64,000 nucleotides of DNA from Acidobacteriota bacterium. GTDB taxonomy: Bacteria; Acidobacteriota; UBA6911; RPQK01; JAJDTT01. Of the stretch, positions 14,101 to 34,863 are shown one piece after another. Where the stretch lies: assembly GCA_965209055.1 (NCBI GenBank), contig OZ242374.1, positions 3,360,001-3,424,000 on the forward strand, in the 5' to 3' direction. The notes below the pieces were generated by a model. The model saw only the letters and a list, made by a program, of their open reading frames with translations. It was not told the origin of the DNA and made no database searches. The first letter of the stretch is position 1. Each line of letters starts with the position of its first letter. The translations under genes were made by a program, and so were the position numbers.

Positions 14101-14132
14101 GAGCTTCCGGTTTCCTGCCGCCCACTGGAGGG

Positions 14133-14147
14133 GGGACTGTTAGTCCC
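14133..14147 (+). repeat. Left attachment-site core GGGACTGTTAGTCCC
   Basis: Identical to 34723-34737; dyad GGGA-CTGTTAG-TCCC. Confidence 0.85.
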
Positions 14148-14184
14148 AACTGTCCCTAAGTCAAAGACTACCGAACATTAACGT

Positions 14185-14270
14185 TTTCAATTATTTACCG
14201 GGTTCTTCGCCGAATCGGTAAAGTGGTTGACTCTCCATGTTTGACATGCTGAACAGGCAACAAACAGGCA
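14185..14270 (+). promoter_or_regulatory. IHF-like site and tandem integrase arm-type sites, left end
   Basis: TTTCAATTATTTA (14185-14197) is one mismatch from WATCAANNNNTTR; tandem AACAGGCA at 14252-14270 recurs at 34614-34628. Confidence 0.65.
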
Positions 14271-14316
14271 GCCGAATCGGTTCCTGAAAGCCGACGCGCC
14301 CTTTTTCCCTCTTCCG

Positions 14317-14748
14317 TTGCCTGGCTCAGAGACATTATCGAATGGGCTTTGCCGACCGTTGGTCGTCACCGGAGGACTCTGCCTGAGGCCGAAGGTGTCT
14401 GACTTCGAATGGCTCGGCATTCCCAAGAATCGGCATCCCCGGCCAGTGTACTACGGCGCGGTGGGGAAGACCCGCCGCTACATGGCGTTCAAACTGCCGA
14501 TTGCCTTCGAGGCGACCCGGACCATCTTCGTCCGTGTCGATCCGGGGCACTCGACCGACCAGGGCCTGCTCAACTCCTACGGCGGGGTGACGGCCGCCTT
14601 GAAGCGGGCGGTCGAGTTGCAACCAGCGGCGGAAGGCCGCTCCTTCCAGGTCGTGATTGACGGTGAACGCACGTGGCAGTCGCAACGGCTGATGGAGGCT
14701 CGTTTCGGCAGTGCGAAAAGAGGGTCTCGCGCCCGCTCCGGGATGTGA
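14317..14748 (+). pseudogene. Fragment of an MGE-associated hypothetical protein (copy 1 of 3)
   Basis: RYMAFKLPIA...FVRVDPG matches RYFPRKLPLA...FVYVGPG (18003 ORF); SYGGVTAALKRAV matches SYGGVTPALKRAI (18694 ORF). Confidence 0.6.
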
Positions 14749-14883
14749 ATGGGACAAAGGGGGTGGATTCACAAAAAGCGGTTCCGGTGACTCACAAATC
14801 CGTCTCCCCCGATCCTTTGTCGTTTCAATCAGTTACGGACCCATTTCCGGCCACCGGGTGGCCGCACGGGGAAAATGGAGGTG

Positions 14884-14980
14884 GACGGGAGCGACCCCCC
14901 CTTTTTGCCGCCCGGTGCGGGCGCGGGGGTGCTGCGCAATTCACATTTGCGCAGCACCCCCTGGGGGGGTCGCTCCCGTC
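14884..14980 (+). repeat. Nested hairpin module, copy 1
   Basis: Perfect 18-bp IR GACGGGAGCGACCCCCCC (14884-14901/14963-14980) enclosing a 15-bp stem (14925-14939/14947-14961). Confidence 0.85.
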
Positions 14981-15509
14981 TCAATTATCCTAGCGGACTG
15001 TTTCTATAAAGTCCGTAAACCATAATATATAAACGAGTTATGAAAATTCTACCACCGCTCTTCCCCCCATTCTTTCCACCGGGTTGAATTGGATGTCTTT
15101 GGCCCTTCGTGGCCGTGAACGGACGTACCCGTTCGGCCAAGCCGTGGAAGAGCGGTCGGTCGGCATCCTCGCCGCAGTGATCAGATCCTGTCGGGTTGCG
15201 GTCGTGCTTGAACCACTTTTCGCGGCGGAAAGACCTCCCTGGGAAAGGATAACGGCAGGTGATCGTCGGCCGCAAAGTCCTTACGCGGCACGCGATCCGA
15301 CCGCATCGTTCCGGACGCCATGGGTCACCTTATCCGCTCCGTGCCTCCACCCCGTCGGAGGTGGAAGAGTGGCGCTTCGTCAGATGCTCGCCCTCCATTG
15401 AGCGCGAGGCCGAAGGTCCGGCTCAGGAAGTCGATCCCCACGGCTTGACCGAACGGTTACGCGTTCAAGTCCTCCGTTGCGAAGACCCGGCGGCGTTGGC
15501 CAACGGCAG

Positions 15510-15724
15510 ATGGAGTTGGCGGCAACGCTGGGCGATCGTTACGACCACACGAAGATCTCCCATGTGGAGAAGCGACACTAGGCACTGCTACTGGATGGGG
15601 CGGTTAAGGCAACGCGCGAGTTGAAGAAAATCGAGGAGGAGTGGCCGGGTCTCAACTACGGGCTGACGCGGGGCATCCTCATTGTCGAGCCATCCGCACC
15701 TTCGGTTCTCTCACTCACCCAGTA
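15510..15724 (+). pseudogene. Possible XRE-type HTH regulator remnant
   Basis: MELAATLGDRYDHTKISHVEKRH*ALLLDGAVKATREL has an HTH-like pattern with an internal stop. Confidence 0.35.
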
Positions 15725-16049
15725 GGCGGCGCGGTACTTTCCACATCCCCCAGGGACTTTTCGTACCAATGCCTAGAGTTTTCTTCTCTTCACTTAGTGC
15801 GGCCTGGACTGTAACGGGGAGTTCCAACAGACTGACCGGGAGCATGAAGCGAAAGAACGAGTCACAGCTAGTGAGTGACAGTCGAGGACTTCTACCGGAG
15901 TTGCCTCCAAGCGCGGTTCGCGGGTTGGTAAGGGGACGGATCGCTGGTGGGAAAAAGCGTGCGCCTCTCTGAGATCATCTTACGGACGGAAAGGAAAAAG
16001 GGAACTATACAAGCCTGTTCGAGAACCAGATTGGACACAGGGGGAGAGA

Positions 16050-16958
16050 ATGACCACTGAGCTTAGACACCTAGAACCTGTCGATCTCCGAGAAGTTTGG
16101 CCTGACGAAAAGGTAGATTTCACTCCTTGGATCGCCGCCAACCTCGAAGTGCTGAGGAGTCCACTGGGAATGGAACTGATAGACCCGGTGCTGGAGCGGC
16201 CAGTCGGTCACTATCAGGCGGACATTGTTTGCAGGGAAGTCAAAACTAACGCCACGGTGGTGATTGAGAATCAACTGGAGCCGACTGATCATGATCATCT
16301 CGGCAAGCTCATCACCTACTCAGCGGGGTTGAAAGCTGACATCAGCATCTGGATTGCCAAGAAATTCAAACACGAACATCATGATGCGCTCCACTGGCTG
16401 AACAAGACCAACGGCGACAAGGATCAATTCTATGGCATCGAGGTCCACGTGCGGTCGAACGAAGATTCGTACGAACCGAAGTTTGTCAAAGTCGACCTCT
16501 CGAAACCCGCACGACGCCCACAGTCATCGCAAAAAAAACGTTACGAAGAATACGGGAGTGCTCTTAACACGTTTCTCAAGTCCAAATTCCCGGACGGACC
16601 GTGGAAGGGTATGACGGGGGGCAATATGGAATACACTGCAGGATACCCTGGGAAGAAATCTGGGGGGCCGTTTGGATTGACCGTAATGCCAAACAAGCCG
16701 GAGCACCGTGTGCGGGTAAAGGTATGGGGTCCAAAAGAGCATTTGCGCCGTCTCAAAAGGCGAGAGGAACTCAACAGGTTAGACGGCTTGAAGTGGGGAC
16801 CCCCAAAGAAGTCCGAGGGGAATTTCCACTGCACCCTTCCCGCTGATCCGAAAGAGAAGTCGGATTGGTGCCGGCAACACAAGTGGATCGCGGACTGTCT
16901 GAATAAAATGCATGAGGTATTCCTCCCACTCGTAAAAGAACTGATCCGTGGCGATTAG
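16050..16958 (+). CDS. DUF4268-type protein with N-terminal NucS-like PD-(D/E)XK nuclease domain
   Basis: VDLREVWPDE..DFTPWIA, ADIVC...VVIENQLEPTDHDHLGKLITY; lower GC. Confidence 0.75.
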   Translation: MTTELRHLEPVDLREVWPDEKVDFTPWIAANLEVLRSPLGMELIDPVLERPVGHYQADIVCREVKTNATVVIENQLEPTDHDHLGKLITYSAGLKADISIWIAKKFKHEHHDALHWLNKTNGDKDQFYGIEVHVRSNEDSYEPKFVKVDLSKPARRPQSSQKKRYEEYGSALNTFLKSKFPDGPWKGMTGGNMEYTAGYPGKKSGGPFGLTVMPNKPEHRVRVKVWGPKEHLRRLKRREELNRLDGLKWGPPKKSEGNFHCTLPADPKEKSDWCRQHKWIADCLNKMHEVFLPLVKELIRGD

Positions 16959-17013
16959 AGGAGGCGAAGATCCCGAGAATGGCTCACAGTCGCAACGGGC
17001 TTCCAGGGAAGTA

Positions 17014-17289
17014 CTATTTTCCAGTAATCACCCAGTCCAGGAACTTGTTGAGCAGGACCGCGAGGCTGGCGATCGTGATGCCAGCCTTCCACATCTTGGA
17101 CTCAAGAGCGGTGGTGGAAACCTGTAGGTCCGCTTTGACCTCGACAATCTCGGCCTTTACAGCGGCCACATCCTCCTTGGTGGCCAACTGGTCGCTGATC
17201 GGAATAGCACTAGCTGCGGCCCGAGCCTTTGACTCTGGCGCACCGGCAGCTACCAGCGCGTCATAGACTTCACTCACCATGACTCCCAT
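17014..17289 (-). CDS. Small coiled-coil protein with C-terminal TM helix (DUF1640/CCDC90-like)
   Basis: YDALVAAGAPESKARAAA, LATKEDV, heptad repeats, hydrophobic tail; RBS GGAGG. Confidence 0.6.
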   Translation of the reverse strand: MGVMVSEVYDALVAAGAPESKARAAASAIPISDQLATKEDVAAVKAEIVEVKADLQVSTTALESKMWKAGITIASLAVLLNKFLDWVITGK

Positions 17290-17314
17290 GAGCTTTCCTC
17301 CAACTCAGCCCAGT

Positions 17315-17731: not shown

Positions 17732-17780
17732 AACCGGGCTTCAGGAATCTCCTCAGGGGCCTTCCCGCAGGGATCATTAG

Positions 17781-17877
17781 GACGGGAGCGACCCCCCCAG
17801 GGGGTGTTGCGCAGATGTAAATTGCGCCACACCCCCGTGCCCGCGCCGGGCAGCAAAACGGGGGGGTCGCTCCCGTC
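17781..17877 (-). repeat. Nested hairpin module, copy 2 (inverted relative to copy 1)
   Basis: Same 18-bp IR; reverse complement aligns to copy 1, with similarity extending to ~18020; ATCCCTGCGGGAAGGC at 17774-17759. Confidence 0.85.
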
Positions 17878-18002
17878 CACCTCCGCTTTCCCCGTGCGGG
17901 CGCGGCGAAGCCGGGAATGTGGCCGGAACTGCATGAGCGACAAAGAGATCGGGGAAATCGGAGGTGTAAGTCAAAAGGCTTCCGGGATGTAACTCGCGTC
18001 CT

Positions 18003-18457: not shown

Positions 18458-18592
18458 AACACACATGGGGGGGTGTGTTCCACTCTCGGAGCGGCGAGTG
18501 TTACACGCTCCCTTTCCGCCATCCTGTTGAGCCCCTTCGGTTTGTCCCCGCCCTCCGGGAGGAGGCGCGCCCGGACGGGGAGTCCGGGTAGG

Positions 18593-19209: not shown

Positions 19210-20205
19210 TCAGAGCGCGGCCAGGAAGGCGATCAGTCCCGTGTTTGTCCTCCACGGGCGATCCGAACCGGGCTCGGCGGCATCGCAGAGCGCCATGGCC
19301 CTGGCCTTCATCTCCAGGTCGATCTCGGCGTAGATGTTGGTCGTATCGAGGCTGGCATGACCGAGCCAAGCGCGGATCGTGTTCAGATCGATGCCGGCCT
19401 GGAGCAGGTGGCAGGCGCTGGTGTGACGGATGGTGTGCGGCGTGACCCTCCTTCCGGCGAGCAACGGGACGCGGGCTGCAGAGCGCTCGACGAGCCGATA
19501 GACCCCGAACCGGGTATAGGACCTGCGCTGCCGGCTGAGGAAGACGGCATCCCCGGCTGCCCGTCCCTGCAAGAGTTCCGTGAGCGCGGCTTCGGTCCGG
19601 GGCCACAGCGGACACTGTCGGTGTTTTCCGCCCTTGCCGTGGATGTTGACGAGCGCTTGCCCGCCGCCGCGTCGTCCGATTTGCAGATCGCCCGCCACGA
19701 GCTGAGTCGTTTCGGAGACGCGTGCCCCGGTGTTGTAGAGGAACAGGAGCAGGGCGTGTTCGACCCGGCCTCTCGGCGTTCGCCGGTCCGGGACCTCGAG
19801 CAGTTCCTTCATCTCGGTCTTGCTGAGCCAGCCGATCGGCTTCGGCGCGGCCTTCTTCGAGGCAATCGCACGGATACTGCCGCTCCACTCGATACGTCCG
19901 GGATCGCGGCTGGCGATGAAGCGTGCGAAGGCCCGGATCGCCGATAGCCGCTGGTTGCGGGTCTGCACGGAGCAACCGCGGTCCTGCTCGAGATAGTCGA
20001 GGAACTGGCGCACGTGCCGGGCCGTGAGGTCCTGCACCGCGATCCGTTCGACTGGCTTGCGGGCCTTGGCGCCGACGAACGGCAGCAGGAGTGCGAAGGT
20101 ATCGCGGTAGCTCTTCTGAGTGTTGCGGGCGAGGTTGCGCTCGGTGACGATGTAATCGGCCAGGAAGCGGCGCAGCCAGGGGCCGAGCGTGCGGGGATTA
20201 CTCAT
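19210..20205 (-). CDS. RIT tyrosine recombinase C
   Basis: NTGARVSE, GKGGK, HTIRH, LGH, IY; SAM-like N-terminus RNTQKSYRD. Confidence 0.92.
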   Translation of the reverse strand: MSNPRTLGPWLRRFLADYIVTERNLARNTQKSYRDTFALLLPFVGAKARKPVERIAVQDLTARHVRQFLDYLEQDRGCSVQTRNQRLSAIRAFARFIASRDPGRIEWSGSIRAIASKKAAPKPIGWLSKTEMKELLEVPDRRTPRGRVEHALLLFLYNTGARVSETTQLVAGDLQIGRRGGGQALVNIHGKGGKHRQCPLWPRTEAALTELLQGRAAGDAVFLSRQRRSYTRFGVYRLVERSAARVPLLAGRRVTPHTIRHTSACHLLQAGIDLNTIRAWLGHASLDTTNIYAEIDLEMKARAMALCDAAEPGSDRPWRTNTGLIAFLAAL

Positions 20206-21151
20206 GGTTTCCTCCTCCGTTGACGTAGGCGTCGAAACGGACCGAAGCCTGATGCAGGAGTTCGGGCGTCATCGACAGATAGATCCGGGTGCCGTTGAGA
20301 TCCGTGTGGCCGAGCCAGGTGGATAGCGTCGGCAGCAGTCGCTGGACATCGGCGCCCTGCCGGTACCAGGACTCCAGCCGGTGTACGGCTGCGGCATGGC
20401 GCAGGGAATGAAAGCACGGACCTCGCCGTCCGTCGTTGCGACCTTCGATTCCGGCCTCCTTGAGCAGCTTGGTGAACGCGTGCGCGGCGGTGCTCTGGGC
20501 CAAGGGCGTCCCGTCGCGGTTGGCGAGGAAGGTCGAGGCCGTGCCCTTGGGGAAGGGGCGTTGTGCGCGCCGGGCGGCATAGGTCTTCAGCGCGTCGGCA
20601 AGTTGCCGGCAGACGGGAACGAGGCGGGTCTTGTAGAACTTGGTGTGACGTATGGTCAGCAGCGCATCGGGCAGGTCCACATCGTCGAGGGTCAGGCGCT
20701 GGGCCTCGCCGAATCGCAGCCCCGCACCGTAGAGAAGCTGGAGCAGTGTCCGCAGGGTATCGGCGTCGATCTGGATCGAACGTTGCCGACTGACATCGAT
20801 GGCGTCGAACAGGCGTTGCAACTCGTTGCGGGAGTACACGTAAGGTGGTGAGGACCGCGGTCGAGTCGGCTCTTCATCGCGCGCCGGAAGCGGCGACCGG
20901 GTCACGTAGCTGCGGCTGATCGCGTAGCGGTAGAAGCCGGCCAGGACGCTGTACTTGTTGGCCCGGTACCGGGTTATCGGACCTTGACCGGCAAGGAAGT
21001 CGAGAACGTGGGCTGGGGAGACGGCATCACAGCCGGCGCTCCCGCCGACCTGTTTCAGGAACCGGTGCAACAAGTATGCGCCGGTGTCGAACTTGGCGCC
21101 ATGGGCCTGACGCCAGGCGATATAGTCGTTGACCGCATCCCGGAGCATCAT
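20198..21151 (-). CDS. RIT tyrosine recombinase B
   Basis: GLRFGE, TKFYKTRLVP, HSLRH, LSTWLGH, IY. Confidence 0.92.
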   Translation of the reverse strand: MMLRDAVNDYIAWRQAHGAKFDTGAYLLHRFLKQVGGSAGCDAVSPAHVLDFLAGQGPITRYRANKYSVLAGFYRYAISRSYVTRSPLPARDEEPTRPRSSPPYVYSRNELQRLFDAIDVSRQRSIQIDADTLRTLLQLLYGAGLRFGEAQRLTLDDVDLPDALLTIRHTKFYKTRLVPVCRQLADALKTYAARRAQRPFPKGTASTFLANRDGTPLAQSTAAHAFTKLLKEAGIEGRNDGRRGPCFHSLRHAAAVHRLESWYRQGADVQRLLPTLSTWLGHTDLNGTRIYLSMTPELLHQASVRFDAYVNGGGNHE

Positions 21152-22380
21152 GTCAGGCCCTCAAGATCGATGTCGGCGACCTCACGGAGGGTGCTGAGGT
21201 TCACCTTGGCGTACACGGCGGTGGACGAGGTGCTGCGATGGCCGAGGTAATCGCCGACCTCCTTGATCGACAGGCCGTGGTCGAGCAGGTGCTGGGCGGC
21301 AGCATGACGAAGCGCATGGGCACCGCGACGTTTGCCGGTGATACCGAGCTGATCGAGGCGTGTCCTGACGACGTTCGAAACTGTCTGCCGGGTCACCGGA
21401 CGGATCGGAGCGATCAGAGTGAGGAACAGTGCCCTCTCCGGGCGCAAGGCACGAACCTCGGTGAGGTAACGCACGATCGACTGCCCGACGCCGCGGGAAA
21501 GCGGATAATGATGGGGGCATCCCGACTTGGGGCGGCGTACCCGTAGCGTCTCCTCTTCCCAGTCCAGATCATCGAGGAGCAGGCCGGCGACCTCGCGGGC
21601 ACGCAACCCGTACGCGATCAGCACCATCAGGATGGCACGGTCGCGAAGGTCGGCCGGCCGGTTGCCCTCGGAGGTTGCGAGCAGGCGGAGCACCTCGCCC
21701 CGGTTGAGTCCCTTCGGGAGTGTCTCGCCGGGATGGAACCGCACCGGCATGATCCCGTCAGCCAGCCCCAGTGTACACCAGCCCTGGCGTTCGGCGAACC
21801 GGGAAAAAGTGCGCAGACGCTGCCCGTAAACGCGGACCGTGCTCCGACTGCAGCCACGGGCGTGCCAGCGCATGACCGCCCGGTCGATGTCGGCGACAAC
21901 GACCGCATCCAAGGCAATGCCCCACTCGCCGAGCTAGTCGAAGAAGCAGTCCATCGTATGGCAGCAAGTACGGATCGTCACCTCGGACCATCCGCGCTCT
22001 TTGCGCATCCACTCCTTGAAGATCGTGGCCTCGGCGACGTGGGCGTGCCGTTGCCGCACCCTACAGGGCTCATCGAGCAGACCCGCGAAGCGTAGCCATC
22101 GCACTGCGCGGCTGACGAAGATCCGGCGCACCCCCGGTCGCGCCGAACGACACGGTCGACGGTCGGTCGCCGCCTCGATCCGGGGCAGGCTGACGCGCTC
22201 GCCTGCCCGCAAGTCCAGAAGACGAATCAGGGTGATCTGAGCCGCTGCGATCGTGCGTAATGTGAGCGGTCGCGCGCCCTCCTGCGCGCAATGCCTCAGG
22301 TAGCTCAACCGTTCTTCCAACAACGGTTCGCAGCGATAACGGCCTATCGTGCCGCGGTCGATGAACAGGGCCTCGAACAT
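21148..22380 (-). pseudogene. RIT tyrosine recombinase A with in-frame TAG
   Basis: ORFs 21934-22380 and 21148-21912 share a frame (CFFD*LGEWG); catalytic YGLRARE, HALRH, LGH, Y lie downstream of the stop. Confidence 0.85.
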
Positions 22381-22674: not shown

Positions 22675-23898
22675 TCAACGGAGCCGGACGGACGCCCGAG
22701 GCCGACTCTCGTCGGCCAGATAGCCCGCCCAGTTGTCCATGAGACGCCTCCGCCGCTCGAACAGGTCCGTCCTCCGGTAGGCCGCCTCGACCGGATTGCG
22801 CACCTTGTGCGCCAAAGCCGCCTCCGCCACCTCGCGCGGATGTTCCGTCTCCTCCGCCACCCAGTCCCGGAAACTCGACCGGAACCCGTGCGGCACCGCC
22901 GCGATCTTCAACCCCCGCAGCAGGTCCGACATGGCCGTATACCCGATGGGCTTTCCACCCACCCCCGGAAAAACGAGTGGGCTGCCGCCAGCGAGCGCCC
23001 GCGCCTCCTCCAGGATCTCCAACGCTCGCCGGGCCAACGGAACGCGGTGCTCCCGATTCACCTTCGTCCGTGGGGCCGGGATGGCCCATACTCCTTCCTC
23101 CCGGTCGATCTCCTTCCACGCGGCCCCACGGACCTCGCCGGAGCGTGTCGCCGTCAGGACCAGGAACTCGAACATCAGCTTCAACATCGGCCGCTTGTTC
23201 GATGCCCGCACCGTCTGGAGTGCGGACGCCACTTCACCGTGAGGCAACGCCCGCATGTGACGCACGGCGGTCCCCTGCGAGCCGAGTACCGGACCGATCC
23301 GGTCGCAGGGGTTGTCGGGCCGAAGATCCATCGCCACGGCCCACTCCAGAACCGCGCGGATGCGCTGGCGCAGCTTCCGGGCCGTGGCGGCCTTCTCGTG
23401 CCAGATCGGAGCCAGGATTCCGATCACGTCCGCGCTCGTCACCTGCGCAATCGGTATCTTCCCGATATGAGGCAAGACGTAGCGCTCCAGGCTCCACAGC
23501 CAGAGCCGCGCATGCCGGGGGGAGCGCCAGCCCGGCCGCAGCTGCTTCCAGACCGCCCCAGCGGCGTCCGCGAAGCTGGGCATCGACTCGGCCCGCCGGT
23601 TCGCGGCCCGGGGGTCGCCCCCGTCGCGGGCCAGCTTCCGGTTGGCGAATGCTTTCTCGCGCGCTTCCTTGAGCGAGACGAGGGGGAATCCACCGAGCCC
23701 GAGCTCGGTTCGCCGGCCCCGGATGGTGAGGCGCTGGATCCAGCCCCGGCTCCCTGTAGGCCGGACGTAGAGGTAGAGGCCGTGGCCGTCGCAGTATCGT
23801 CCGGACTGGCTCACGTTGCGGACAAAGGCCGGGGTCAGGGCATTGAGGGGATGCGGCCCGCGCGGCTTGCGTTTGGGAGGTTGTTTCGGGAATCTCAT
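22675..23898 (-). CDS. P4-like tyrosine integrase with arm-DNA-binding (DUF4102) domain
   Basis: GRYCDGHGLYL...LGLGGFPLVSLKEARE, TATRSGE, PHGFRSSFRDW, ALAH, AYRR. Confidence 0.92.
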   Translation of the reverse strand: MRFPKQPPKRKPRGPHPLNALTPAFVRNVSQSGRYCDGHGLYLYVRPTGSRGWIQRLTIRGRRTELGLGGFPLVSLKEAREKAFANRKLARDGGDPRAANRRAESMPSFADAAGAVWKQLRPGWRSPRHARLWLWSLERYVLPHIGKIPIAQVTSADVIGILAPIWHEKAATARKLRQRIRAVLEWAVAMDLRPDNPCDRIGPVLGSQGTAVRHMRALPHGEVASALQTVRASNKRPMLKLMFEFLVLTATRSGEVRGAAWKEIDREEGVWAIPAPRTKVNREHRVPLARRALEILEEARALAGGSPLVFPGVGGKPIGYTAMSDLLRGLKIAAVPHGFRSSFRDWVAEETEHPREVAEAALAHKVRNPVEAAYRRTDLFERRRRLMDNWAGYLADESRPRASVRLR

Positions 23899-24357
23899 AC
23901 CTACCACTATATATACCACAATATGGTGGATGCAAGGGGATGAAGCGGGTCGGTATGGGACAAGGTCGGATGTCCGATCTAGTTGTAAACCAATCATAAA
24001 CAAACACTTATGGACAATACTGGACTTACCTGGACGATGCACCTGATTAAATCTAGGCTTCCTAGCGGGAAGGCTCCAATAGGGCTACTCTGGCAATCTG
24101 TGTAGTCAATCCTCTATGAGCCAGCGCAGGCCATCGGTCTTGCCGATCTGGGGTGGAAAGTGGATCTGGTTGAACGCTCGATCCGGAATGGGAACCAGGA
24201 CCTCGTCGAAGCGCTGGAGCAGAACGCCGATAGACAAGTGAGACTATTTGACCTTGCCGTTCGGTAACGAATTGCAAAAGGTCCAAGTGATACTCCACCT
24301 TGCTCCGGTCGGCCAAATTGGCCAAGATTGACGTTTGCCATCAACTGTAGGAGTGGC

Positions 24358-24542
24358 ATGCGGAAGCCGAGCGCGAAAGACGCGAAGTACGGCTTCGGCC
24401 GACGCATCGGCCTCGCCCGCGCCGCGCCCGTCACGGTGACCAAGCACGGGCGGTTATCGTGGCGCTCTTGGTCGAGGAATACGAGCGCCTGAAGGCGCTT
24501 GACACACCTGAGGCACGCTCGGGAACGGAGGAACGGGAATGA
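24358..24542 (+). pseudogene. Phd/YefM antitoxin, frameshifted
   Basis: MRKPSAKDAKYGFGR..ARAAPVTVTKHGR, then in another frame [17 protein letters not shown]; GGCCAAATTGGCC dyad upstream. Confidence 0.7.
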
Positions 24543-24573
24543 CGTGGAACAGAACGGGAGGCCGCTGAGCCGG

Positions 24574-26898
24574 ATGGACAAGCGAGGCCTCTCAGAGCGT
24601 GACATCTGCACGAAGTTCATCACGCCCGCTCTGCGCAACGCCGGGTGGGACGAGATGTTGCAGATTCGCGAAGAGGTGAGCTTCACCCAGGGCCGGATCA
24701 TCGTGCGGGGCAAGCTGGTCGCACGCGGCAAGGGGAAACGCGCCGACTACATCCTTTATCTCAAGCCAAACATCCCGATCGCCGTGATCGAGGCGAAGGA
24801 CAATTCCCACAGCCTCGGCGACGGCATGCAGCAGGCTCTGGATTACGCCGAGATCCTGAACGTTCCCTTCGCGTTCTCTTCGAACGGCGACGGCTTCGTG
24901 TTCCACGACCGTACGGGGGCCAGTACACCGCTTGAGTCGGACCTTTCTCTTGAAGACTTTCCGTCACCCGCCGATCTGTGGGCGCGCTATCGGGCCTGGA
25001 AGGGCCTGACGCCGGAAGCCGAGGAGATCGTCCTTCAAGACTATTTCGAAGACGGCAGCGGCAAGACGCCGCGCTACTACCAAGTCAATGCCATCAACGC
25101 GACAATCGAGGCCATCGCCAAGGGGCAGAACCGTATCCTGCTCGTCATGGCCACGGGCACGGGCAAGACCTATACCGCCTTCCAGATCATCTGGAGGCTA
25201 TGGAAGGCGCGCCGCAAGAGACGCATCCTGTTTCTCGCCGACCGCAACGTGCTCGTCGATCAGACGATGACGAACGATTTCCGCCCGTTCGGCGGCACAA
25301 TGACCAAGCTCTCGCGCCGGATCGACCCGGCGTACGAGGTCTATCTCGGCCTCTATCAGGCAATCACCGGACCGGAGGAACGCCAGAAGACGTACCGAAA
25401 GTTCTCACCGGAGTTCTTCGATCTGATCGTGATCGACGAATGTCACCGGGGCAGTGCTGCCGACGATTCGGCGTGGCGCGAGATCCTTGAGTACTTCTCT
25501 GCCGCAACCCAGATCGGTCTCACCGCCACGCCGAAGGAGACGAAGTACGTCTCCAACATCGCCTATTTCGGGGAGCCGGTCTTCACTTACTCCTTGAAGC
25601 AGGGCATCAACGACGGTTTCCTCGCGCCCTACAAGGTGGTCAAGGTCCATATCGATCGGGACGTGGAGGGCTACCGCCCAGAGAAGGGAAAGGTCGACCG
25701 CGTCGGCGAGCCAGTTGAGGATCGCGTTTACAACTTGATGGACTTCGACCGAACTCTGGTCATCGACGAACGGACGACACTCGTCGCGCAGAAGGTCACG
25801 GCTTTCCTGAAGGAGAGTGGCGATCGTTTCCAGAAGGCGATCATCTTTTGCGTCGATCAAGAGCACGCCGCGCGGATGCGTCAGGCGCTGATCAACGAGA
25901 ACGCGGATCTCGTCGAGGGCAACTCACGTTACGTCATGCGGATCACCGGTGGAGATACTTTGGGACAGGCCGAACTCGGGAACTTCATCGATCCGGAATC
26001 GAAATACCCCGTCCTGGTCACCACATCGCGCCTGCTGTCCACCGGCGTCGACGTCCAGACTTGCCGGTTGATCGTGCTCGACCGAGCAGTGGGGTCGATG
26101 ACCGAGTTCAAGCAGATCGTCGGCCGCGGTACCCGCGTGCACGAAGACACACGAAAGTTCTACTTCACGCTCATCGACTTCCGGGGGGCCACGGGTCATT
26201 TCGCGGACCCGGACTTCGACGGCGAGCCGGTCCAGATTTACAGGCCGGAGGAAGACGGTCCGATCGCGCCACCCGATGGGCCGGATCCCGGCCCGAACGG
26301 GAACGGCGACGTAGATCCACCGCCGGGGCCACAGAAGAAAATCTATGTCGATGGCGTCGAAGTGGCCATCGTCGCTGCCCGGGTGCAATACCTCGACGGG
26401 CACGGCAAGCTGGTGACGGAGTCGTTGCGTGATTTCACGAGGAAAGCCCTGCGCCGGCGCTTCGCGAGCCTTGACGACTTCCTGAACCGTTGGAACGCCG
26501 CAGAGCGCAAGCAGGCAATCATTGATGAGATGGAGGCCGAGGGCCTGCCGCTGACCGTGATCGCCGAAGAGTTGGGCAAGGATCTCGACCCCTTCGATCT
26601 CGTCTGTCACATCGCCTTTGACGCCAAACCGCTGACCCGCCGCGAGCGGGCCGAGAATGTCAAGAAGCGGGACGTGTTCGCGAAATACGGAGGTCAGGCC
26701 CGCGCTGTGCTCGATGCGTTGCTCGACAAGTACGCGGACGAGGGCATTCTCAATCTCGACGACGCCAACGTCCTTAGAATCCCGCCACTCGACCGACTCG
26801 GTACACCGTTGGAACTGGTCCGCGCCTTTGGCGGGAAGCCCGGTTTCGAGCGGGCCGTGCACGATGTTCAATCCGCCCTCTATCGCGAGATCGCCTAA
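24574..26898 (+). CDS. hsdR: Type I restriction enzyme R subunit (EcoAI/EcoEI-like)
   Basis: ADYIL...IEAK nuclease, [25 protein letters not shown]; start taken at [12 protein letters not shown]. Confidence 0.95.
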
Positions 26899-26901
26899 GA
26901 G

Positions 26902-28353
26902 ATGTCCGTCAGCACGCTCGTCAAGTCGATTCAGAACATCATGCGCCAGGACGTGGGCGTCGATGGCGATGCGCAGCGCATCAGTCAACTGTGCTGGATG
27001 TTCTTCCTCAAGATCATCGACGATCAGGACCAGGAGCTCGAAGTTCTAAAGGACGGATACCGTTCGCCCGTACCTGACCCATTGCAATGGCGGAGTTGGG
27101 CCGGCGACCCGGAAGGCATCACAGGCGAGGAGTTGCTCGACTTCGTCAACGGCGATCTCTTTCCGAAGCTGAAGGAACTTCCGCGCAGGGCCGGCCCTCG
27201 CGCCAGCGTCGTGCGCGACGTGTTCGAGGACGCCTACAACTACATGAAGTCCGGCCCGCTGCTGCGGCAGGTTGTCAACAAGATCAACGGAATCGACTTC
27301 AACAACCTGACCGACCGGCGGCACTTCGGCGATATCTACGAGCAAGTCTTGAACGATCTGCAATCGGCCGGCAATGCGGGCGAATACTACACGCCACGCG
27401 CCGTGACCTCGTTCATGGCCCAAATGATCGACCCGAAACCGGGCGAGACCCTGCTCGATCCGGCGTGCGGCACTGGCGGGTTCCTCACCTGCGCCATCCG
27501 TCATATGCACGAACGCTACGTGAAGCGGACCGAAGATGAGGCAAGGATGCAGGCCTCCCTGCGGGCCATGGAGAAGAAGCCACTCCCCCACATGCTCGCC
27601 GTCACGAATATGCTCCTGCACGGCATCGAAGATCCGTCGTTTCTGCGCCACGACAACACACTGGCGCGCCCCTACATCTCTTGGGGCCGGGACGACCGCG
27701 TGGACATCGTGTTGACCAATCCGCCGTTCGGTGGCAAGGAGGAGGACGGCATCGAATCGAACTTCCCGAAGCACTTCCAGACGCGCGAGACGGCTGACCT
27801 GTTTCTCGCCCTGATCGTCCGACTTCTGAAACCCGGCGGCAGGGCTGCCGTGGTCCTACCCGACGGCTCCTTGTTCGGCGAGGGTGTCAAGACGCGGCTC
27901 AAAGAGCACTTGATGAGGGAATGCAACCTTCACACCATTGTGCGCCTGCCGAACTCGGTGTTCTGTCCCTACGCTTCGATCGGGACGAACTTGCTGTTCT
28001 TCGAGAAAGGCGAACCGACCAAGGATGTCTGGTTCTGGGAACACCTCGTACCTGAGGGCCAAAAGGCCTATTCAAAGACCAGACCCATCCGGCTGGAGCA
28101 TCTTGAGGACTGTGCCGCTTGGTGGGGCGGGGCGGAACGTAAGAGCCGCGAGGAAGGTGAACGAGCTTGGAAGGTGACTGCCGAGGAGATCGCTACGCGC
28201 GGCTACAACCTCGACATCAAGAATCCTCATACCGAAGAAGAGGACCTTGGCGATCCCGAGATGCTACTGGAGGAGCTGACGCGTGCCGAGGCCGAGGTGA
28301 ACTCAGTGCGAGACCAGTTGAAGGGAATCCTGACAGAGGCGCTGTCACGGTGA
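26902..28353 (+). CDS. hsdM: Type I RM N6-adenine methyltransferase
   Basis: GEYYTPR, DPACGTGGFL, NPPF. Confidence 0.95.
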   Translation: MSVSTLVKSIQNIMRQDVGVDGDAQRISQLCWMFFLKIIDDQDQELEVLKDGYRSPVPDPLQWRSWAGDPEGITGEELLDFVNGDLFPKLKELPRRAGPRASVVRDVFEDAYNYMKSGPLLRQVVNKINGIDFNNLTDRRHFGDIYEQVLNDLQSAGNAGEYYTPRAVTSFMAQMIDPKPGETLLDPACGTGGFLTCAIRHMHERYVKRTEDEARMQASLRAMEKKPLPHMLAVTNMLLHGIEDPSFLRHDNTLARPYISWGRDDRVDIVLTNPPFGGKEEDGIESNFPKHFQTRETADLFLALIVRLLKPGGRAAVVLPDGSLFGEGVKTRLKEHLMRECNLHTIVRLPNSVFCPYASIGTNLLFFEKGEPTKDVWFWEHLVPEGQKAYSKTRPIRLEHLEDCAAWWGGAERKSREEGERAWKVTAEEIATRGYNLDIKNPHTEEEDLGDPEMLLEELTRAEAEVNSVRDQLKGILTEALSR

Positions 28354-30089
28354 ATGCTGACCGCCTATTCGCCCTATACGACCGCGTAGCCGAGGCACCG
28401 GACGCCATTGGACGTCTGCGCCGCTTCGTGCTGGATCTCGCCTTGCGGGGAAAGCTTGTGGAGCAGGATCCGGCAGATGAACCGGCATTGGGACTGCTGA
28501 ACCGGATTGATGAGGCGAATGATCCACTGGCAGGATTCAACCGGGCTAAAAAATCACGAGCACTACCACCGATAAACCCGAGGGAGGTCCCTTTCGAGTT
28601 ACCATCAGCCTGGCAATGGGTGTATTTCGGGAACATCGTCGATTTTTCCGCAGGCCGGACGCCCCCACGGAAAGAACCATCGTATTGGAATACCGGTGAT
28701 TTCCCATGGATCAGCATCGCCGACATGGAGGACGGAAAGACCCTTCGATCTACGAAGGAGACTGTGAGCACCGAGGCCCGTCTCAACGTCTTTAAGCGTG
28801 AGCCGGAGCCACCCGGCACAATGATCATGAGCTTTAAGCTCACAATTGGAAAGATCGCCAAGCTGGGCATCTCCGCGTTTCATAACGAGGCAATTATTTC
28901 CATTCGGCCACATGTCGGTGACCTAAACTCCTACCTATTCAAGGTTCTACCTGATCTTGCACGGGGCGCCAATACCAAAGGAGCAATCAAGGGCGCAACG
29001 CTTAACCGTAAGTCACTTTTGACCATAATGGTCCCGCTCCCGCCTCTCGCTGAGCAGTGCCGCATCGTTGCCAAGGTCGATGAACTCTTGGCGGTTTGCG
29101 ACCAGTTGGAGAAAGCACGCACCGCGCGGGAGGACACCCGCGACCGGCTCACCAAGGCCAGTCTTACCCGTCTAGTTGCTCCCGACATCGACGCCCCGAC
29201 GTTTCGTTCTCACGCGCGCTTTGCCGTCGATGCCCTGCCCGCACTGACCGCTCGTGCCGATCAGATCAGGCATCTACGCCAGACGATTCTTGGCCTCGCC
29301 GTGCGGGGGAAGCTGGTGGAGCAGAATCCGGCGGACGAACCGGCGGACGAAATACTGGAACGGATCGCGGCAGAAAAGGTACGACTGTTGAGGGCACGAA
29401 AGATCAGGAGACACAAATCAACTGCATCGTTGTCACGAATAGAATCGGATTTTGGACTACCGAGTGGTTGGGCGGCAGCAAGGTTCTCGGATGTCGTGAC
29501 TGAGTTACGAACCGGACCCTTCGGCAGCTCCCTTCACCGGAGTGACTATGAAAAAGGCGGAACACCCGTCATCAATCCTGCATCAATACAGGATGGGAAG
29601 ATTGTTCCTTTCGAGAATATGGCGATAGGGGACGATACTCTTGAGAGACTCGCAACGTTCAAACTCCGCGCCGGTGACATCGTGATGGGCCGTCGTGGCG
29701 AAATGGGACGCTGCGCGGTGGTAGAACAGAGCGAGGAAGGTTGGCTCTGTGGGACGGGAAGCCTGATTCTCCGTCTTTCGAATAGCCTCTATCCAAAATA
29801 CCTAGCAATGCTCATCGGATCGCCCAATTTTCGGGAAAATCTTCGAGGTCATTCTGTCGGCGCTACAATGCAGAATCTGAATCAGTCCATTCTGTTGAAG
29901 ATGAGCATTGGTCTACCACCGCTCGCCGAGCAGTACCGCATCGTTGCCAAGGTCGATGAGTTCCTAGCGCTCTGCGACCGCCTAGAGGCCCGTATCACTA
30001 CCACAGATGGCACCCGCCATCGTCTCCTCGGAGCCCTTCTGCATAATGTGCTGGCATCAAACACGAAGCCGCGTCCTCTTGGAGGCTAA
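28350..30089 (+). CDS. hsdS: Type I RM specificity subunit
   Basis: Two TRDs with repeated GKLVEQ(D/N)PADEPA and PPLAEQxRIVAKVDE; GTG overlaps the hsdM stop. Confidence 0.93.
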   Translation: MNADRLFALYDRVAEAPDAIGRLRRFVLDLALRGKLVEQDPADEPALGLLNRIDEANDPLAGFNRAKKSRALPPINPREVPFELPSAWQWVYFGNIVDFSAGRTPPRKEPSYWNTGDFPWISIADMEDGKTLRSTKETVSTEARLNVFKREPEPPGTMIMSFKLTIGKIAKLGISAFHNEAIISIRPHVGDLNSYLFKVLPDLARGANTKGAIKGATLNRKSLLTIMVPLPPLAEQCRIVAKVDELLAVCDQLEKARTAREDTRDRLTKASLTRLVAPDIDAPTFRSHARFAVDALPALTARADQIRHLRQTILGLAVRGKLVEQNPADEPADEILERIAAEKVRLLRARKIRRHKSTASLSRIESDFGLPSGWAAARFSDVVTELRTGPFGSSLHRSDYEKGGTPVINPASIQDGKIVPFENMAIGDDTLERLATFKLRAGDIVMGRRGEMGRCAVVEQSEEGWLCGTGSLILRLSNSLYPKYLAMLIGSPNFRENLRGHSVGATMQNLNQSILLKMSIGLPPLAEQYRIVAKVDEFLALCDRLEARITTTDGTRHRLLGALLHNVLASNTKPRPLGG

Positions 30090-30415: not shown

Positions 30416-30470
30416 GATCGCGCAATGCGCTGCTGGATGGATGGCACCCTTCCCTGACACACCGAACGTG

Positions 30471-31025: not shown

Positions 31026-31038
31026 GACGATAGCGGAC

Positions 31039-31686: not shown

Positions 31687-31696
31687 CGTAGATCTC

Positions 31697-32680
31697 CTAT
31701 CCTGCTCTTGGACCCGTCTTGATCGAGGTGATTGCAGGTTTGCTCTCGCCAACGTCGTTCTTGTGAGTCACTTGCACGTCGTATTCAGTGTTGGGCTTGA
31801 GATCAACGAAGGAGCACATGTTAAAAGGTGTCTCGAACCCGGGACTCCACGCTTGCGTTCCTGACTCCCTGATACGAACGACGGAAGTGACTGTCGGGTT
31901 CCATTTGGCCTCGAGCGTCCGTCCGAGCTTGTCGGGTAGCAGCACAGAGATCATTTTGCCGTCCCACACAAGGCGCGGATTTTCGGAGCGGCTCGACATC
32001 TGATGATCCATGGTCGTGTAATCCTGACCGAGCCTAGGCGCGATTTGCTCCGCAAGGATGCGGTCTAGGACGAGCACGGATCTCAACGGAATGTAAATGC
32101 GTATGACGGACCCGCGGCTCGTGCCCGAAAGTGAGAGGTGGCTATCGTGCAACATCCCACGCGACTGCCAATAGGCCAACATTGAGCGGAAATTACGGCG
32201 ACCCGCCGGGTGCTCGTCTCTAGCCTCCTCCGAGAACGGGCTAGTACTTATCTCCATCTCGAAGTCGTGAGCGCTCACTTGGTCGTATATATTGCACAGC
32301 GCCTCCCGTGAGGCAGTCGGAAGGGCATCGAACAATTTGGCGAGGTGCGGGGCGGCGTTGGCCGGAAGCGCATCTTTGTTCTGGGCGAGAAAGCTCAGCA
32401 GACGGAACGAGTGCACGTAGGCGAGACCGAGGTTCGTCGTCGCGGACAGGCACGCGCCGATGTGGCGGATGGCCCCGCCTCCCGGGAGTTCCGCCAACTT
32501 GCTTACCACATGGTCGGGGACAGCAAGCCTACCGTCGTCCTCCGTCTCCAGTTCCCGATATCCGTCGATCGCCTGCAGAACAGGGTCGAGGGTTACTCTG
32601 GCCGCTTCGAAAAACGAGATCACCATTTCGTAAAGGAACGGTACATGTGCATGTAGTTTGTGGGTATCAACTCCTGTCAT
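31697..32680 (-). CDS. Hypothetical protein: helical N-terminal domain plus C-terminal FN3-like domain
   Basis: C-terminal FVDLKPNTEYDVQVTHKNDVGESKP is an FN3 signature; HLAKLFDALP in the N-terminal part. Confidence 0.7.
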   Translation of the reverse strand: MTGVDTHKLHAHVPFLYEMVISFFEAARVTLDPVLQAIDGYRELETEDDGRLAVPDHVVSKLAELPGGGAIRHIGACLSATTNLGLAYVHSFRLLSFLAQNKDALPANAAPHLAKLFDALPTASREALCNIYDQVSAHDFEMEISTSPFSEEARDEHPAGRRNFRSMLAYWQSRGMLHDSHLSLSGTSRGSVIRIYIPLRSVLVLDRILAEQIAPRLGQDYTTMDHQMSSRSENPRLVWDGKMISVLLPDKLGRTLEAKWNPTVTSVVRIRESGTQAWSPGFETPFNMCSFVDLKPNTEYDVQVTHKNDVGESKPAITSIKTGPRAG

Positions 32681-32784
32681 GGCTGCCTAGCTTCGCGGTT
32701 GGTTGACGCGTGTGCTGTAGCCCTCGAACGTATGCAAAAGGGGTAGTGCGCACGGAATTGAAGGGCGCGGTGGTACCATGTAGT

Positions 32785-33120
32785 TCATTTCTTCAGAAAC
32801 GGAGTGATCTTCCCAACAGCACCGTTTGATTTCGTTCTGCACTTTAGCCTGATTGGAGGACCTTCGCCCGTTGCGTTTTTGTGCGTAACTTGGATCTCAT
32901 ATTCCGTGTTGGGTACAAGGCCGACGAAGCTGCAGCCGTTCAACGGTGTCTCGAAGCCAGGGCTCCAGATTTCTGTACCTGTCTCCCGTATCCGGACCAC
33001 GGTGGTGGTGCCGGGACGCCACTTGGCATCAATAATCCTGCCTTGAAGCGGAAGCGAGACTCTGAACTCTCCGTCAGTCCACTCAACCCTCGGTTCGGCA
33101 TCTCTGGGTTGCTTAGCCAT
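32785..33120 (-). CDS. Stand-alone FN3-like domain protein, paralogous to the C-terminus of 31697-32680
   Basis: VVRIRETGTEIWSPGFETPLNGCSFVGLVPNTEYEIQVTHKNATGEGPP; ATG at 33120 after GGAGA. Confidence 0.7.
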   Translation of the reverse strand: MAKQPRDAEPRVEWTDGEFRVSLPLQGRIIDAKWRPGTTTVVRIRETGTEIWSPGFETPLNGCSFVGLVPNTEYEIQVTHKNATGEGPPIRLKCRTKSNGAVGKITPFLKK

Positions 33121-33294
33121 ATGACTTCTCCGCAAAGGCATCTTGGAGATACCCTCCAACCTAGATGTCAACCTACCACAAACTAAGGTTTTGCGCGCAA
33201 CAGAGGGATGAGAATCGCGGAAGGCGGTGGAACGTCTGGCAGCGATGACCCGGGAGGTTGAAACGTGCATCTTCGCGTGAAGGAACAGACGTCC

Positions 33295-33520
33295 ATGATG
33301 ATCGGCAAGGCAGTCGTACTGATCTCAGGTACCCAACCGTAGGCTCTTCAGCGTTGCGGCTACGGCCCAGTACTTGGGAATGTCCATCGGTACGATTCGC
33401 AAACTGGCCGATATGAACATCATCAAAGCCAGAGCCGAATTCGACACCGCCGACCGGCGCCGTCGCGTCTTAGCCCGGGAAGACTTGAACCCCTGCGGCG
33501 ATTCTCTGGAGCCGTGTTAG
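33295..33520 (+). pseudogene. xis: Excisionase/RDF (HTH_17-like), frameshifted
   Basis: MMIGKAVVLISGTQP, one extra base, then RLFSVAATAQYLGMSIGTIRKLAD; directly upstream of int. Confidence 0.7.
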
Positions 33521-33567
33521 GATTCGCCGCAACGGCGAAGAACCCGGATCCAGAAAGGAGGAGATGC

Positions 33568-34656
33568 ATGGGCATCTACAAAGTGAAGGATCGCCGGGGG
33601 AGAAGACGCTATGTCGTCAGCAAGTACTGGCCGCACGGATCCGGTCGGCTCCGAATGTACGCCCCCAACTACCGGAGCGCACAGGCGCTTCAAACACGAA
33701 TCGAGTCCAGCATCCTGGACGGCACCTGGAAGCAGCTCAAGGAGGAGCTCGCCGGCGGGAAACGCACCATCTGGACGGTGCACAGCTTCTACGAGCGTTT
33801 CTTCGAGGAGTATTGCAAACCTCGCATGCGCTCCCGGCGTCGCTATGCGCTCTCGTTCAAGAGCCTCAACGCCATGCTGGGGAACATTCCCCTGAAGGAG
33901 TTCCGACGCAAGGACCTGTACCGCTACGTCGCCCAGAGGAAGAAGCAAGTGCAGCCGGCCACGGTGAACCGCGACATCGCCGCCCTCAGCAAGCTGTTTT
34001 CCTACGCGCTGGAGTGCGGGGAAGTGGACACGCACCCGCTGGTGAGATTCCCCAAACTCAAAGAACCCAAGAAGGTCTTCCGGCCCTTGACGGTTCCACA
34101 GTTCCGCGACCTGGTCGAGGCGATGGACAATCCGTACCTGCAAGCCATGGTTGCGGTGATCGGCGAGACGGGAATTCGGAAAGGCGAGGCGTTGTCGCTC
34201 ACCTGGAAACGGGTGGACCTGTCCCGGAGGCTGCTATGGGTGGAATTCACCAAGAACGACGAGACGAGGGAGATCCCGCTGTCGAAGTACGCTGCTGGAT
34301 ATCTGGCCGGGCTGGTTCGTTACCTGAACACGCCATACGTTTTCGTCAACACCCGGACCGGGACGAGATGGGTGAATCCGGACAAGCCATTGCGCCGCGC
34401 CGCCGAGCGAGTGGGGTTGAAGGTCGGATTTCACGATCTGAGACGATTCCGGTGCAGCCATTGGCTGATGCAGGGTGTGGACGTGAGGACGGTGCAGAAG
34501 CTGATGGGACACTCATCCATCAGCACGACCATGCGCTACGCCGGGTACGTCAGTTCGCATGCGCTTGCCAGCATTCGGGAGGCACAGGCTACCGAAGACT
34601 CCCAAACGCAACCGGCAACAAACAGGCAACGGGCAGGAAATAGGGTGAGTGACTAG
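33568..34656 (+). CDS. int: Tyrosine recombinase/integrase of the outer island
   Basis: PATVNRD, TGIRKGE, TKN, FHDLRR, MGH, TMRY; RBS AGGAGG. Confidence 0.93.
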   Translation: MGIYKVKDRRGRRRYVVSKYWPHGSGRLRMYAPNYRSAQALQTRIESSILDGTWKQLKEELAGGKRTIWTVHSFYERFFEEYCKPRMRSRRRYALSFKSLNAMLGNIPLKEFRRKDLYRYVAQRKKQVQPATVNRDIAALSKLFSYALECGEVDTHPLVRFPKLKEPKKVFRPLTVPQFRDLVEAMDNPYLQAMVAVIGETGIRKGEALSLTWKRVDLSRRLLWVEFTKNDETREIPLSKYAAGYLAGLVRYLNTPYVFVNTRTGTRWVNPDKPLRRAAERVGLKVGFHDLRRFRCSHWLMQGVDVRTVQKLMGHSSISTTMRYAGYVSSHALASIREAQATEDSQTQPATNRQRAGNRVSD

Positions 34657-34694
34657 AGTAAAGCAGTGGCGTAAACCCTTGAAAACAAAAGCGC

Positions 34695-34737
34695 ACGCCC
34701 GAATCTCAGCAGGACAGAGGACGGGACTGTTAGTCCC
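34695..34737 (+). other. Right attachment site with degenerate tRNA-5'-half-like sequence
   Basis: ACGCCCGAATCTCAGCAGGACAGAGGA resembles a tRNA acceptor 5' strand plus D-arm; the core forms a GGGA/TCCC stem with 7-nt loop CTGTTAG; no T-arm follows. Confidence 0.6.
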
Positions 34738-34863
34738 CCCGTCTTCGGTGTTGCTATGCGATCGGTCTCTGGCCGGTGACGGAGATTCCGAGTAACGTGG
34801 TCAGAACGCCGAAGAAGTCAAACCAAACGGAGATCACCCCATCGCAAGAGGAGCGCAGGAAAA

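Follow-up and report, generated by a model that had tools for sequence, protein, structure and literature searches.

The 64,000-nucleotide stretch of DNA considered here (hereafter the window) comes from a metagenome-assembled genome of an uncultured, sponge-associated member of the Acidobacteriota, a single contig (C1) of 6,077,182 bp, and it contains an island of about 20.6 kb with a tyrosine integrase gene at its right end. We consider it very probable that this island belongs to a family of integrative elements, each moved by its own terminal lambda-type integrase into hairpins of the repetitive extragenic palindrome (REP) type. Tyrosine integrases are the textbook agents of single-site, tRNA-directed integration.

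Both ends of the island carry an exact copy of the 15-mer GGGACTGTTAGTCCC (14133-14147 and 34723-34737). On the left, the end of a gene for a PQQ-type beta-propeller protein (12835-14100) is followed by GGAG and three G (14127-14132); on the right, three C and the sequence GTCTTC (34738-34746) precede an M19 dipeptidase gene (34864-36210). A reading made earlier from the sequence alone (the sequence-only reading) had proposed that this repeat bounds the island and that joining the host flanks across it rebuilds a palindrome, and both proposals hold, since the two 15-mers lie where expected and the rebuilt palindrome is also found as intact free hairpins at other sites in the genome. Counted in the window alone, the 15-mer is only weakly beyond chance (0.18 copies expected, two observed, and two reached in 3 of 100 shuffles), and it is the whole-genome copies that make it more than a chance repeat. 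There are 37 of these, in junction and empty forms: intact palindromes preceded by GGAG, left junctions that run on into the terminus CAGTCAAAGACTAC, and right junctions preceded by GGACAGAGC. The G+C content is 56-58% in the right half of the island versus 62-66% in its flanks.

The island is one member of a large family, which, together with the tRNA-like right end and the additional recombinases in the cargo, goes beyond what the sequence-only reading had described. A search with the left terminus returned 31 matches, 28 of which are genuine element ends, and all 28 adjoin a hairpin. Full-length copies of the integrase (tblastn, whole genome) number 26, at 90.4-100% identity, with fragments besides, and every one of these intact integrases pairs with a left end in an element of between 2.6 and 25 kb. 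The smallest elements (2.7 kb) consist of a left backbone of about 830 bp, a variable stretch, the integrase gene (int) and the right end. One short frame in the left backbone had seemed conserved by eye, and was rejected as coding because substitutions fell on the three codon positions in the numbers 378/271/336 and 36 of 54 gaps were of 1 nt. With the backbone non-coding, the integrase is the sole gene common to all members; no DDE or DEDD transposase is shared among the elements. The elements at 4.495 and 6.054 Mb, at different loci, are identical across all 2780 bp, and two further elements share 2982 bp at 100% identity, which, judged from the sequences, indicates a very recent gain of copies. 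The left ends at 474741 and 484580 are oriented towards each other, about 10 kb apart; the interval lacks a family integrase, and the pair may record a rearrangement between two elements. The contig itself terminates within the right end of the last element (C1:6074485-6077182), where the assembly was probably broken or opened at the repeat.

Could something other than the terminal integrase have moved the island? The window island carries four more tyrosine recombinases, a trio and a P4-type integrase, and elsewhere in the genome lies a gene for an HUH enzyme resembling the REP-associated tyrosine transposases (RAYTs), so that candidates for another mover are at hand. However, the minimal elements have the same ends and targets with the terminal integrase only, and because they lack the cargo genes, the shared ends need none of them. 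The terminal integrase and both termini are common to 26 of 26 elements, and the two matches to Y1_Tnp in the genome both lie outside elements. We regard movement by a cargo recombinase or by the RAYT-like enzyme as extremely improbable.

The targets are numerous. A genome-wide count gave 772 hairpins in which GGAG precedes a perfect stem of 7 bp or longer, compared to 208 in the reversed-genome control, and these hairpins form discrete sequence classes, GATT-TCC-AATC (n=54) being one example. They were extragenic at the sites inspected, namely the window site, other element sites and the window palindromes; the description, in the sequence-only reading, of the free palindromes at 36225, 39312-39335 (minus strand) and 48169 as GGAG hairpins was correct. 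Elements occupy either the GACT-GTT-AGTC hairpin (n=17) or TCC/TCT-type hairpins (n=11, including the class of 36225). The central 11-mer of the GTT class is present at 45 sites, 33 of them scored as junction half-sites and 12 as free, although the 12 include a misclassified junction and a half-site, leaving about 10 intact free hairpins. The classifier over-calls right ends for the TCC class because its pattern is loose, and TCC counts were therefore taken from left ends. The earlier idea that this integrase uses a potentially multicopy repeat as its bacterial attachment site (attB) is thus borne out by 28 element ends among a population of 772 hairpins, and a genome-wide count finds the rebuilt attB to be a member of the REP family with 45 centre sites rather than a single-copy sequence.

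The conserved 5' tetranucleotide of these hairpins is GGAG, and GGAG variants of the REP tetranucleotide are known. At C1:1142808-1143728 (minus strand) the RAYT-like gene adjoins three to four GGAG/GGAA hairpins, and an integrase element sits in one of these. The excess over the control, the arrays in related genomes and the RAYT-like gene beside an array lead us to conclude that the GGAG hairpins are a true repeat family, and it is likely that the RAYT-like protein spreads these target hairpins, not the island. The same layout as in the host hairpins, a 5' tetranucleotide ahead of a stem of roughly 8 bp with a loop of 3 nt, has been described for the REPs of S. maltophilia, where the tetranucleotide is GTAG (PMC8266576).

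Empty sites in sister genomes show what the targets look like without an element. In the same-genus genome G001 the two genes that flank the window island are 60 bp apart, and the hairpin between them is intact, shares its class and its right flank (GTCTTCGGTGTTGC) with that of the window site and has a stem that differs by paired changes; the orthologous empty site that the sequence-only reading had suggested seeking in relatives was thereby found. Similarly, the flanks of the TCC-class element at 1118796 are contiguous in G001 around an intact hairpin, with a gap of 30 bp. Because G001 has 19 GTT cores and a single match to the element terminus, the hairpin class evidently exists without elements. 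At the site orthologous to that of the window, some nine GGAG hairpins of two alternating classes take up the intergenic region of the genome G003 as a tandem array, G004 and G002 have hairpin pairs, and other same-genus genomes carry different hairpin classes, making this intergenic site a REP hotspot. In G006 the hairpin is replaced by an 868-bp insert with two short open reading frames (ORFs) that resemble an antitoxin-toxin pair (the second is PIN-like, as judged by eye).

These observations also bear on whether the hairpins belong to the host at all. If they were terminal repeats carried by the elements, or footprints of excision, then the free copies would be scars and not host REPs. The GTT class is indeed small and mostly occupied (17 elements versus about 10 intact free hairpins), and at two sites the sister species have another hairpin centre, both of which would suit such an origin. 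Yet conservative tyrosine recombination restores attB and makes no new copies, G001 has its 19 GTT cores with one terminus, the 772 hairpins fall into many classes (54 of them GATT-TCC-AATC), and there are tandem arrays in G003 and hairpins beside the RAYT-like gene. On this evidence we think it very unlikely that the hairpins derive from the elements, and host REPs as the targets is the reading that we carry forward.

The orientation of the elements follows a simple rule. In element orientation the core loop reads GTT in 10 elements and AAC in 7, and the host GGAG is on the left-end side in 9 of the 10 GTT-class elements and on the right-end side in all 7 of the AAC class, so that insertion orientation matches the asymmetric loop of the hairpin in 16 of 16 scorable cases. 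Of the sites scored free, 11 of 12 read GGAG and then GTT. Since the host hairpin has a single polarity and the loop of the element must match it, the loop sets the direction of entry. An asymmetric overlap in the loop would set the direction of insertion by a tyrosine recombinase, and the loop-dependent orientation points strongly, if indirectly, to strand exchange across the loop.

What, then, sets the choice of hairpin class? The integrases of GTT and AAC elements are intermixed in the tree, with no residue diagnostic between them, and the GTT/AAC and TCC groups are separated by one fully diagnostic residue, position 359, which is in the tail. Integrases of the sister genomes, 74-93% identical, are associated with the core loops TCC, TCT, TTT, TTC and TTTCCT. 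With GTT and AAC added, this set of loops goes with integrases that are 75-100% identical. The core is shared exactly with the hairpin class that the element occupies, over 15 bp for the GTT/AAC class and over 11 bp for the TCC class, and its copies are identical at both junctions in every paired GTT or AAC element. We consider the chances about even that the target is set by the DNA of the core in the attachment site of the element (attP) rather than by the protein, that a flipped loop flips the insertion, and that this is consequently a naturally retargetable integrase. A guide RNA in the manner of the IS110 bridge RNAs was also considered and rejected, as none of 25 elements holds an internal copy of its own central 9-mer.

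The integrase itself (33568-34656) matches PF00589 with an E-value of 2.7e-27 (96.1 bits against a cut-off of 27.1), and among 41 homologues, down to 40% identity, no variation is seen at R204, H289, R292, H315 or Y324, and conservation of K229 is 90% or higher. Its AlphaFold2 model, with a predicted local distance difference test score (pLDDT) of 89.2, has an N-terminal sheet of three strands (residues 3-7, 13-20 and 27-32) and a helix (35-51), all at pLDDT 84-91, followed by core-binding and catalytic domains. Full-length lambda integrase gives the best Foldseek matches (341-349 aligned columns, E 1e-13), although no Pfam arm-domain model matched the protein and the matches by sequence alone are Xer-type proteins over residues of about 100-340. 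As modelled, the integrase is a lambda-type three-domain tyrosine recombinase.

The sequence-only reading had placed arm-type and IHF-like (integration host factor) sites at the junction, and candidates for both are present. The motif ACAGGCA, which is rare (401 occurrences in 6.08 Mb, both strands), lies at 14253-14259, 14264-14270 and 34622; the left arm has two copies of it and the right arm one or two. The block 34614-34630 is invariant in 25 of 25 right ends despite lying in the variable C-terminal tail of int, and together with the ACAGGCA repeats it provides candidate arm-type sites. The IHF-like site at 34672-34685 is one mismatch from what we take to be the IHF consensus, and its position is conserved in distant relatives. 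The GGACAG...CTGTCC dyad proposed in the same reading fared less well: both halves are present (34712-34717 and 14150-14155), but the dyad is not conserved across element classes, GGACAG being the D-arm remnant of a tRNA-like segment and CTGTCC being replaced in other classes by CCGTCC, TAGCCC or CTGTTC.

A variant of our interpretation keeps the enzyme and its targets and supposes that the hairpin is recognized in an extruded or single-stranded form, as are integron attC sites or as CTX phage does at dif. That the target is a perfect hairpin with an 8-bp stem would fit this, as would the finding that integrases less than 10% different, with one diagnostic residue, use cores that are unlike in sequence and alike in shape; moreover, IntI4 is among the structural and sequence matches of the integrase, as are Xer proteins. 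Against it, the best structural match is full-length lambda integrase, candidate arm-type repeats are present, and the integron-integrase models score far below their cut-offs (TIGR02249, 60.8 versus 265 bits; NF011946, 28.5 versus 435 bits). In addition, a copy of the core is present at each junction, as expected of duplex exchange, and the ancestral target was a tRNA gene, a classic duplex attB. Recognition of a folded strand is in our estimation improbable, and exchange between duplex hairpin sequences is the form in which we pursue our interpretation below.

The origin of the family is written in its right ends, which resemble the 5' halves of the tRNA-Arg genes of the genome in their acceptor strand, D arm and anticodon stem. 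In the window this segment (34694-34737) is vestigial and is not called by ARAGORN, which finds no tRNA gene in the 64 kb, and no Rfam family matches within 13900-35000 at E <= 0.1. A TCT-class core and the tRNA-Arg(TCT) anticodon arm disagree at 1 of 12 bases, and the TCT/TCC-class cores in general are 1-2 bases from a tRNA-Arg anticodon arm. We searched 401 genomes of the phylum, 18 of which had a match to the integrase at E 1e-40 or better. Among 19 loci with 33-83% integrase identity, a complete tRNA gene is just downstream of int in 16. For instance, tRNA-Arg lies on the same strand 41-48 nt after int in G003 (83%), twice in G035 and in G010 (72%). At 11 of the 19 the tRNA gene (Arg, Leu, Thr, Ser, Cys or Asn) is on the opposite strand, and one further locus has a tRNA-Arg fragment that ends at the anticodon arm. 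Similarly, the partial integrase at locus L028 (85%) is followed by a complete tRNA-Arg(TCT) gene on the same strand at about 40-48 nt, and 40 of 55 more distant loci that we scanned have a tRNA or tmRNA gene. In the tree, the tRNA-Arg copy of G003 is sister to a shallow clade of all hairpin users (support 0.95). Because homologues at 72-85% identity and below are at tRNA genes, we conclude that tRNA was the ancestral site.

Does this mean that a tRNA-Arg gene is still the primary attB, and that the hairpins are only occasional secondary sites, entered when the tRNA is unavailable? The tRNA-Arg-like 5' half at the right end, the relatives at 72-85% identity located at tRNA-Arg and the tRNA or tmRNA genes at 40 of the 55 distant loci would all suit such a preference. 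However, none of the five tRNA-Arg genes of this genome is within 5 kb of a family integrase, nor is any real tRNA among the 68 called, the sole call at that distance being an odd 85-nt one inside an element. The cores agree with their hairpin classes over 11-15 bp but not with the tRNA-Arg anticodon arm; since each attP core matches its own hairpin class exactly, the REP is not a secondary site. Furthermore, integration at a mismatched secondary site, as known from lambda, is expected to leave two junctions that differ, whereas here the two junction cores are identical in every paired GTT/AAC element. The 28 hairpin ends in this genome are matched by hairpin right ends in 13 of 16 close copies of the integrase in sister genomes, and 26 of 26 copies in this genome are at hairpins. 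The other outcome that the sequence-only reading had named as fatal to it, that all homologous integrases are at tRNA genes, thus did not occur. We judge a persisting tRNA-Arg preference to be highly unlikely. Whether the lineage has in fact left its single-copy tRNA site for REP hairpins that mimic the tRNA-Arg anticodon arm, and now acts as a tyrosine-recombinase 'insertion sequence', is a proposition that we hold with evenly divided confidence.

Two tRNA calls of the genome deserve mention in their own right. ARAGORN reports a 98-nt 'tRNA-Asn' at C1:5832285-5832382 that is not tRNA-like and is probably a false call. The genome's own tRNA-Asn was also considered as a target and set aside, its anticodon arm being different and the gene uninterrupted.

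How might these elements move? In the mechanism that we propose, the terminal integrase would recombine an attP core that mimics a tRNA anticodon stem-loop with REP-type hairpins of the host, in which GGAG is accompanied by a G-rich stem of about 8 bp with a loop of 3 nt. The strands would be exchanged inside the block common to attP and attB (15 bp in the class of the window island and 11 bp in the TCC class), most likely over the loop and the two base pairs of stem that adjoin it on either side, which together correspond to the 7-nt anticodon loop, and the asymmetry of the loop would dictate the direction of insertion. As the hairpin is multicopy, the element could then behave much like an insertion sequence, consistent with the 28 ends and the minimal 2.7-kb, integrase-only forms. 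The integrases would descend from ones that acted at the tRNA-Arg anticodon arm, with retargeting by a change in the attP core and a protein left almost unchanged. Copy number may have risen by reintegration after replication, by replication of the circle or by re-entry from other cells. More speculatively, hairpin centres may be converted when elements integrate into and excise from mismatched hairpins, in which case the elements would seed their own class of attB.

Several observations weigh against this interpretation or leave parts of it resting on indirect grounds. The GTT-class element at 3004475 has no adjacent GGAG. At two of four further sites (E337 and E4495) the sister hairpins are of another class, with the same outer stem and a different centre, and at E3004 no hairpin of the matching class was seen at the site in the sister genomes; all three sites hold GTT-class elements, and what the sister genomes have there is either another hairpin class or unrelated sequence. 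The pre-insertion sequences of these three sites are thus reconstructed rather than seen. L028, with its complete tRNA-Arg gene, nests inside the hairpin-using clade, albeit with weak backbone support (0.32-0.83), and the switch from tRNA-Arg to hairpins may have happened more than once. In comparison with the REPtrons described in PMC8266576, the hairpins have GGAG instead of GTAG, and the RAYT-like protein, for all its HUH-like NHVHV motif, matches NF047646 just below the curated cut-off (E 1.5e-21, 76.8 versus 80 bits) and has hairpins only on the 5' side of its gene. The arm, core and IHF sites that we propose are putative binding sites for the integrase. We found neither a second conserved coding frame in the minimal elements nor an excisionase, which leaves room for one that is very small or acts in trans. 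Finally, no excised circle or attP junction was observed in the contigs of four short-read runs covering a minimal element and its flanks, although these contigs are broken at repeats and are uninformative on excision either way; where a contig joint begins at the final base of the left core, its sides are 19-26 letters long and it falls 66-96 bp beyond the right core. Activity is therefore suggested by the identical copies and by the empty sites of other species. The stretch or part of it is contained in 23 sequencing runs, the majority labelled sponge metagenomes.

The features of the window island and its surroundings are as follows.

14127-14147, plus strand: attL, comprising the host GGAG, the left stem of the REP hairpin and the left core copy (14133-14147).
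14148-14300, plus strand: conserved left terminus (P' arm), with about 28-30 copies in the genome and two ACAGGCA arm-site candidates inside.
14300-15000: non-coding left backbone, including a structured repeat of about 130 nt (about 14860-14990).
19210-20205, 20198-21151 and 21148-21912, minus strand: cargo, three overlapping tandem tyrosine recombinase genes (PF00589, E 4.6e-27, 2.3e-23 and 2.7e-30).
22675-24042, minus strand: cargo, a second, unrelated integrase of P4 type (Arm-DNA-bind_3, Phage_int_M and Phage_integrase).
24499-30089, plus strand: cargo, type I restriction-modification genes hsdR (24499-26898), hsdM (26902-28353) and hsdS (within an ORF at 28167-30089).
33568-34656, plus strand: the element's own integrase, 362 amino acids, a lambda-type tyrosine recombinase with three domains as modelled.
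34584-34630, plus strand: candidate arm-type sites of the P arm in the 3' tail of int (ACAGGC at 34584-34589 and the block 34614-34630).
34672-34685, plus strand: IHF-like site (by the consensus that we assume) in the interval between the int stop codon and the core.
34694-34737, plus strand: vestigial 5' half of tRNA-Arg (acceptor strand, D arm and anticodon-arm look-alike) with the right core copy at its end.
34738-34746, plus strand: host side of attR, the remaining right stem CCC and the REP flank GTCTTC.
36225-36247, plus strand: free, unoccupied REP hairpin of the TCC class, a class occupied by 11 other elements in the genome.

The window island is a composite. Neighbouring genes of the recombinase trio overlap by 4-8 bp in a recombinase-in-trio arrangement, and the P4-type integrase, just upstream of the type I restriction-modification genes, may represent an older island nested within the present one. 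Two further cargo ORFs have weak fibronectin-type matches. The structured repeat of about 130 nt has a second, inverted copy in the window at about 17757-17973 and consists of a long outer stem that encloses a pair of hairpins. Its spanning copies in the genome number 58, and of 66 blastn matches 30 fall outside integrase elements. Its consensus fold has 32 pairs, 9 of them with compensatory changes (54 of 1694 cells are non-canonical), it folds equally on both strands and it has no Rfam match; ARAGORN mistakenly calls two copies, at 3841235 and 5203736 of the genome, as 85-nt tRNA-Val genes.

How do these elements compare with known systems? Like the tRNA islands of Islander class A, with their lambda- or P4-type integrases, they have a three-domain integrase beside the attachment site, an attP that includes a fragment of a tRNA gene (tDNA) and a core that is a stem-loop with a central overlap. 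Here, however, the target is a multicopy REP hairpin, the tDNA is a vestigial 5' half, and there are 28 copies as opposed to one per site. In the Islander survey, an anticodon-centred attP was found in 2083 of 3919 islands and the 5' tDNA fragment geometry in 159 of 3919 (PMC4383910). Specific insertion into REPs, in many copies per genome, is shared with IS1397, ISKpn1, IS621, ISPa11, ISPpu9/10, ISRm22 and other insertion sequences, and REP targeting is documented for five families, all of them transposases (PMC1525189). Those enzymes are DDE or DEDD transposases (IS3, IS110, IS4, IS256 and IS5), whereas here the enzyme is a tyrosine recombinase with candidate arm sites, cargo reaches about 22 kb, and a core of 11-15 bp is duplicated by what would be conservative exchange. 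Integron integrases acting on attC and Xer-dependent elements at dif resemble the present system in being tyrosine recombinases on palindromic sites where shape counts over sequence; they differ from it in that here the element has its own integrase with a predicted arm-binding domain, no integron signature and nothing indicating single-stranded substrates. Our literature search, outside of which lay the subscription journals, found no published tyrosine integrase with a REP as attB, although the tables of REP-targeting insertion sequences in PMC1525189 could hold cases. We conclude that the new marks of these elements are a multicopy REP as attB, an abundance like that of an insertion sequence and core-based retargeting of a lambda-type integrative element.

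The importance of these findings, in an uncultured host from sponges, is basic and not medical. One clade displays the steps of a target switch, from relatives at tRNA-Arg through a vestigial tRNA half to hairpins that mimic an anticodon arm. With one protein and varied cores, it also amounts to a natural experiment on the specificity and direction of integrases, which is of relevance to engineering them for new sites. For the host, REPs can serve as landing pads that allow islands with defense genes, here those of a type I restriction system, to accumulate in the genome.

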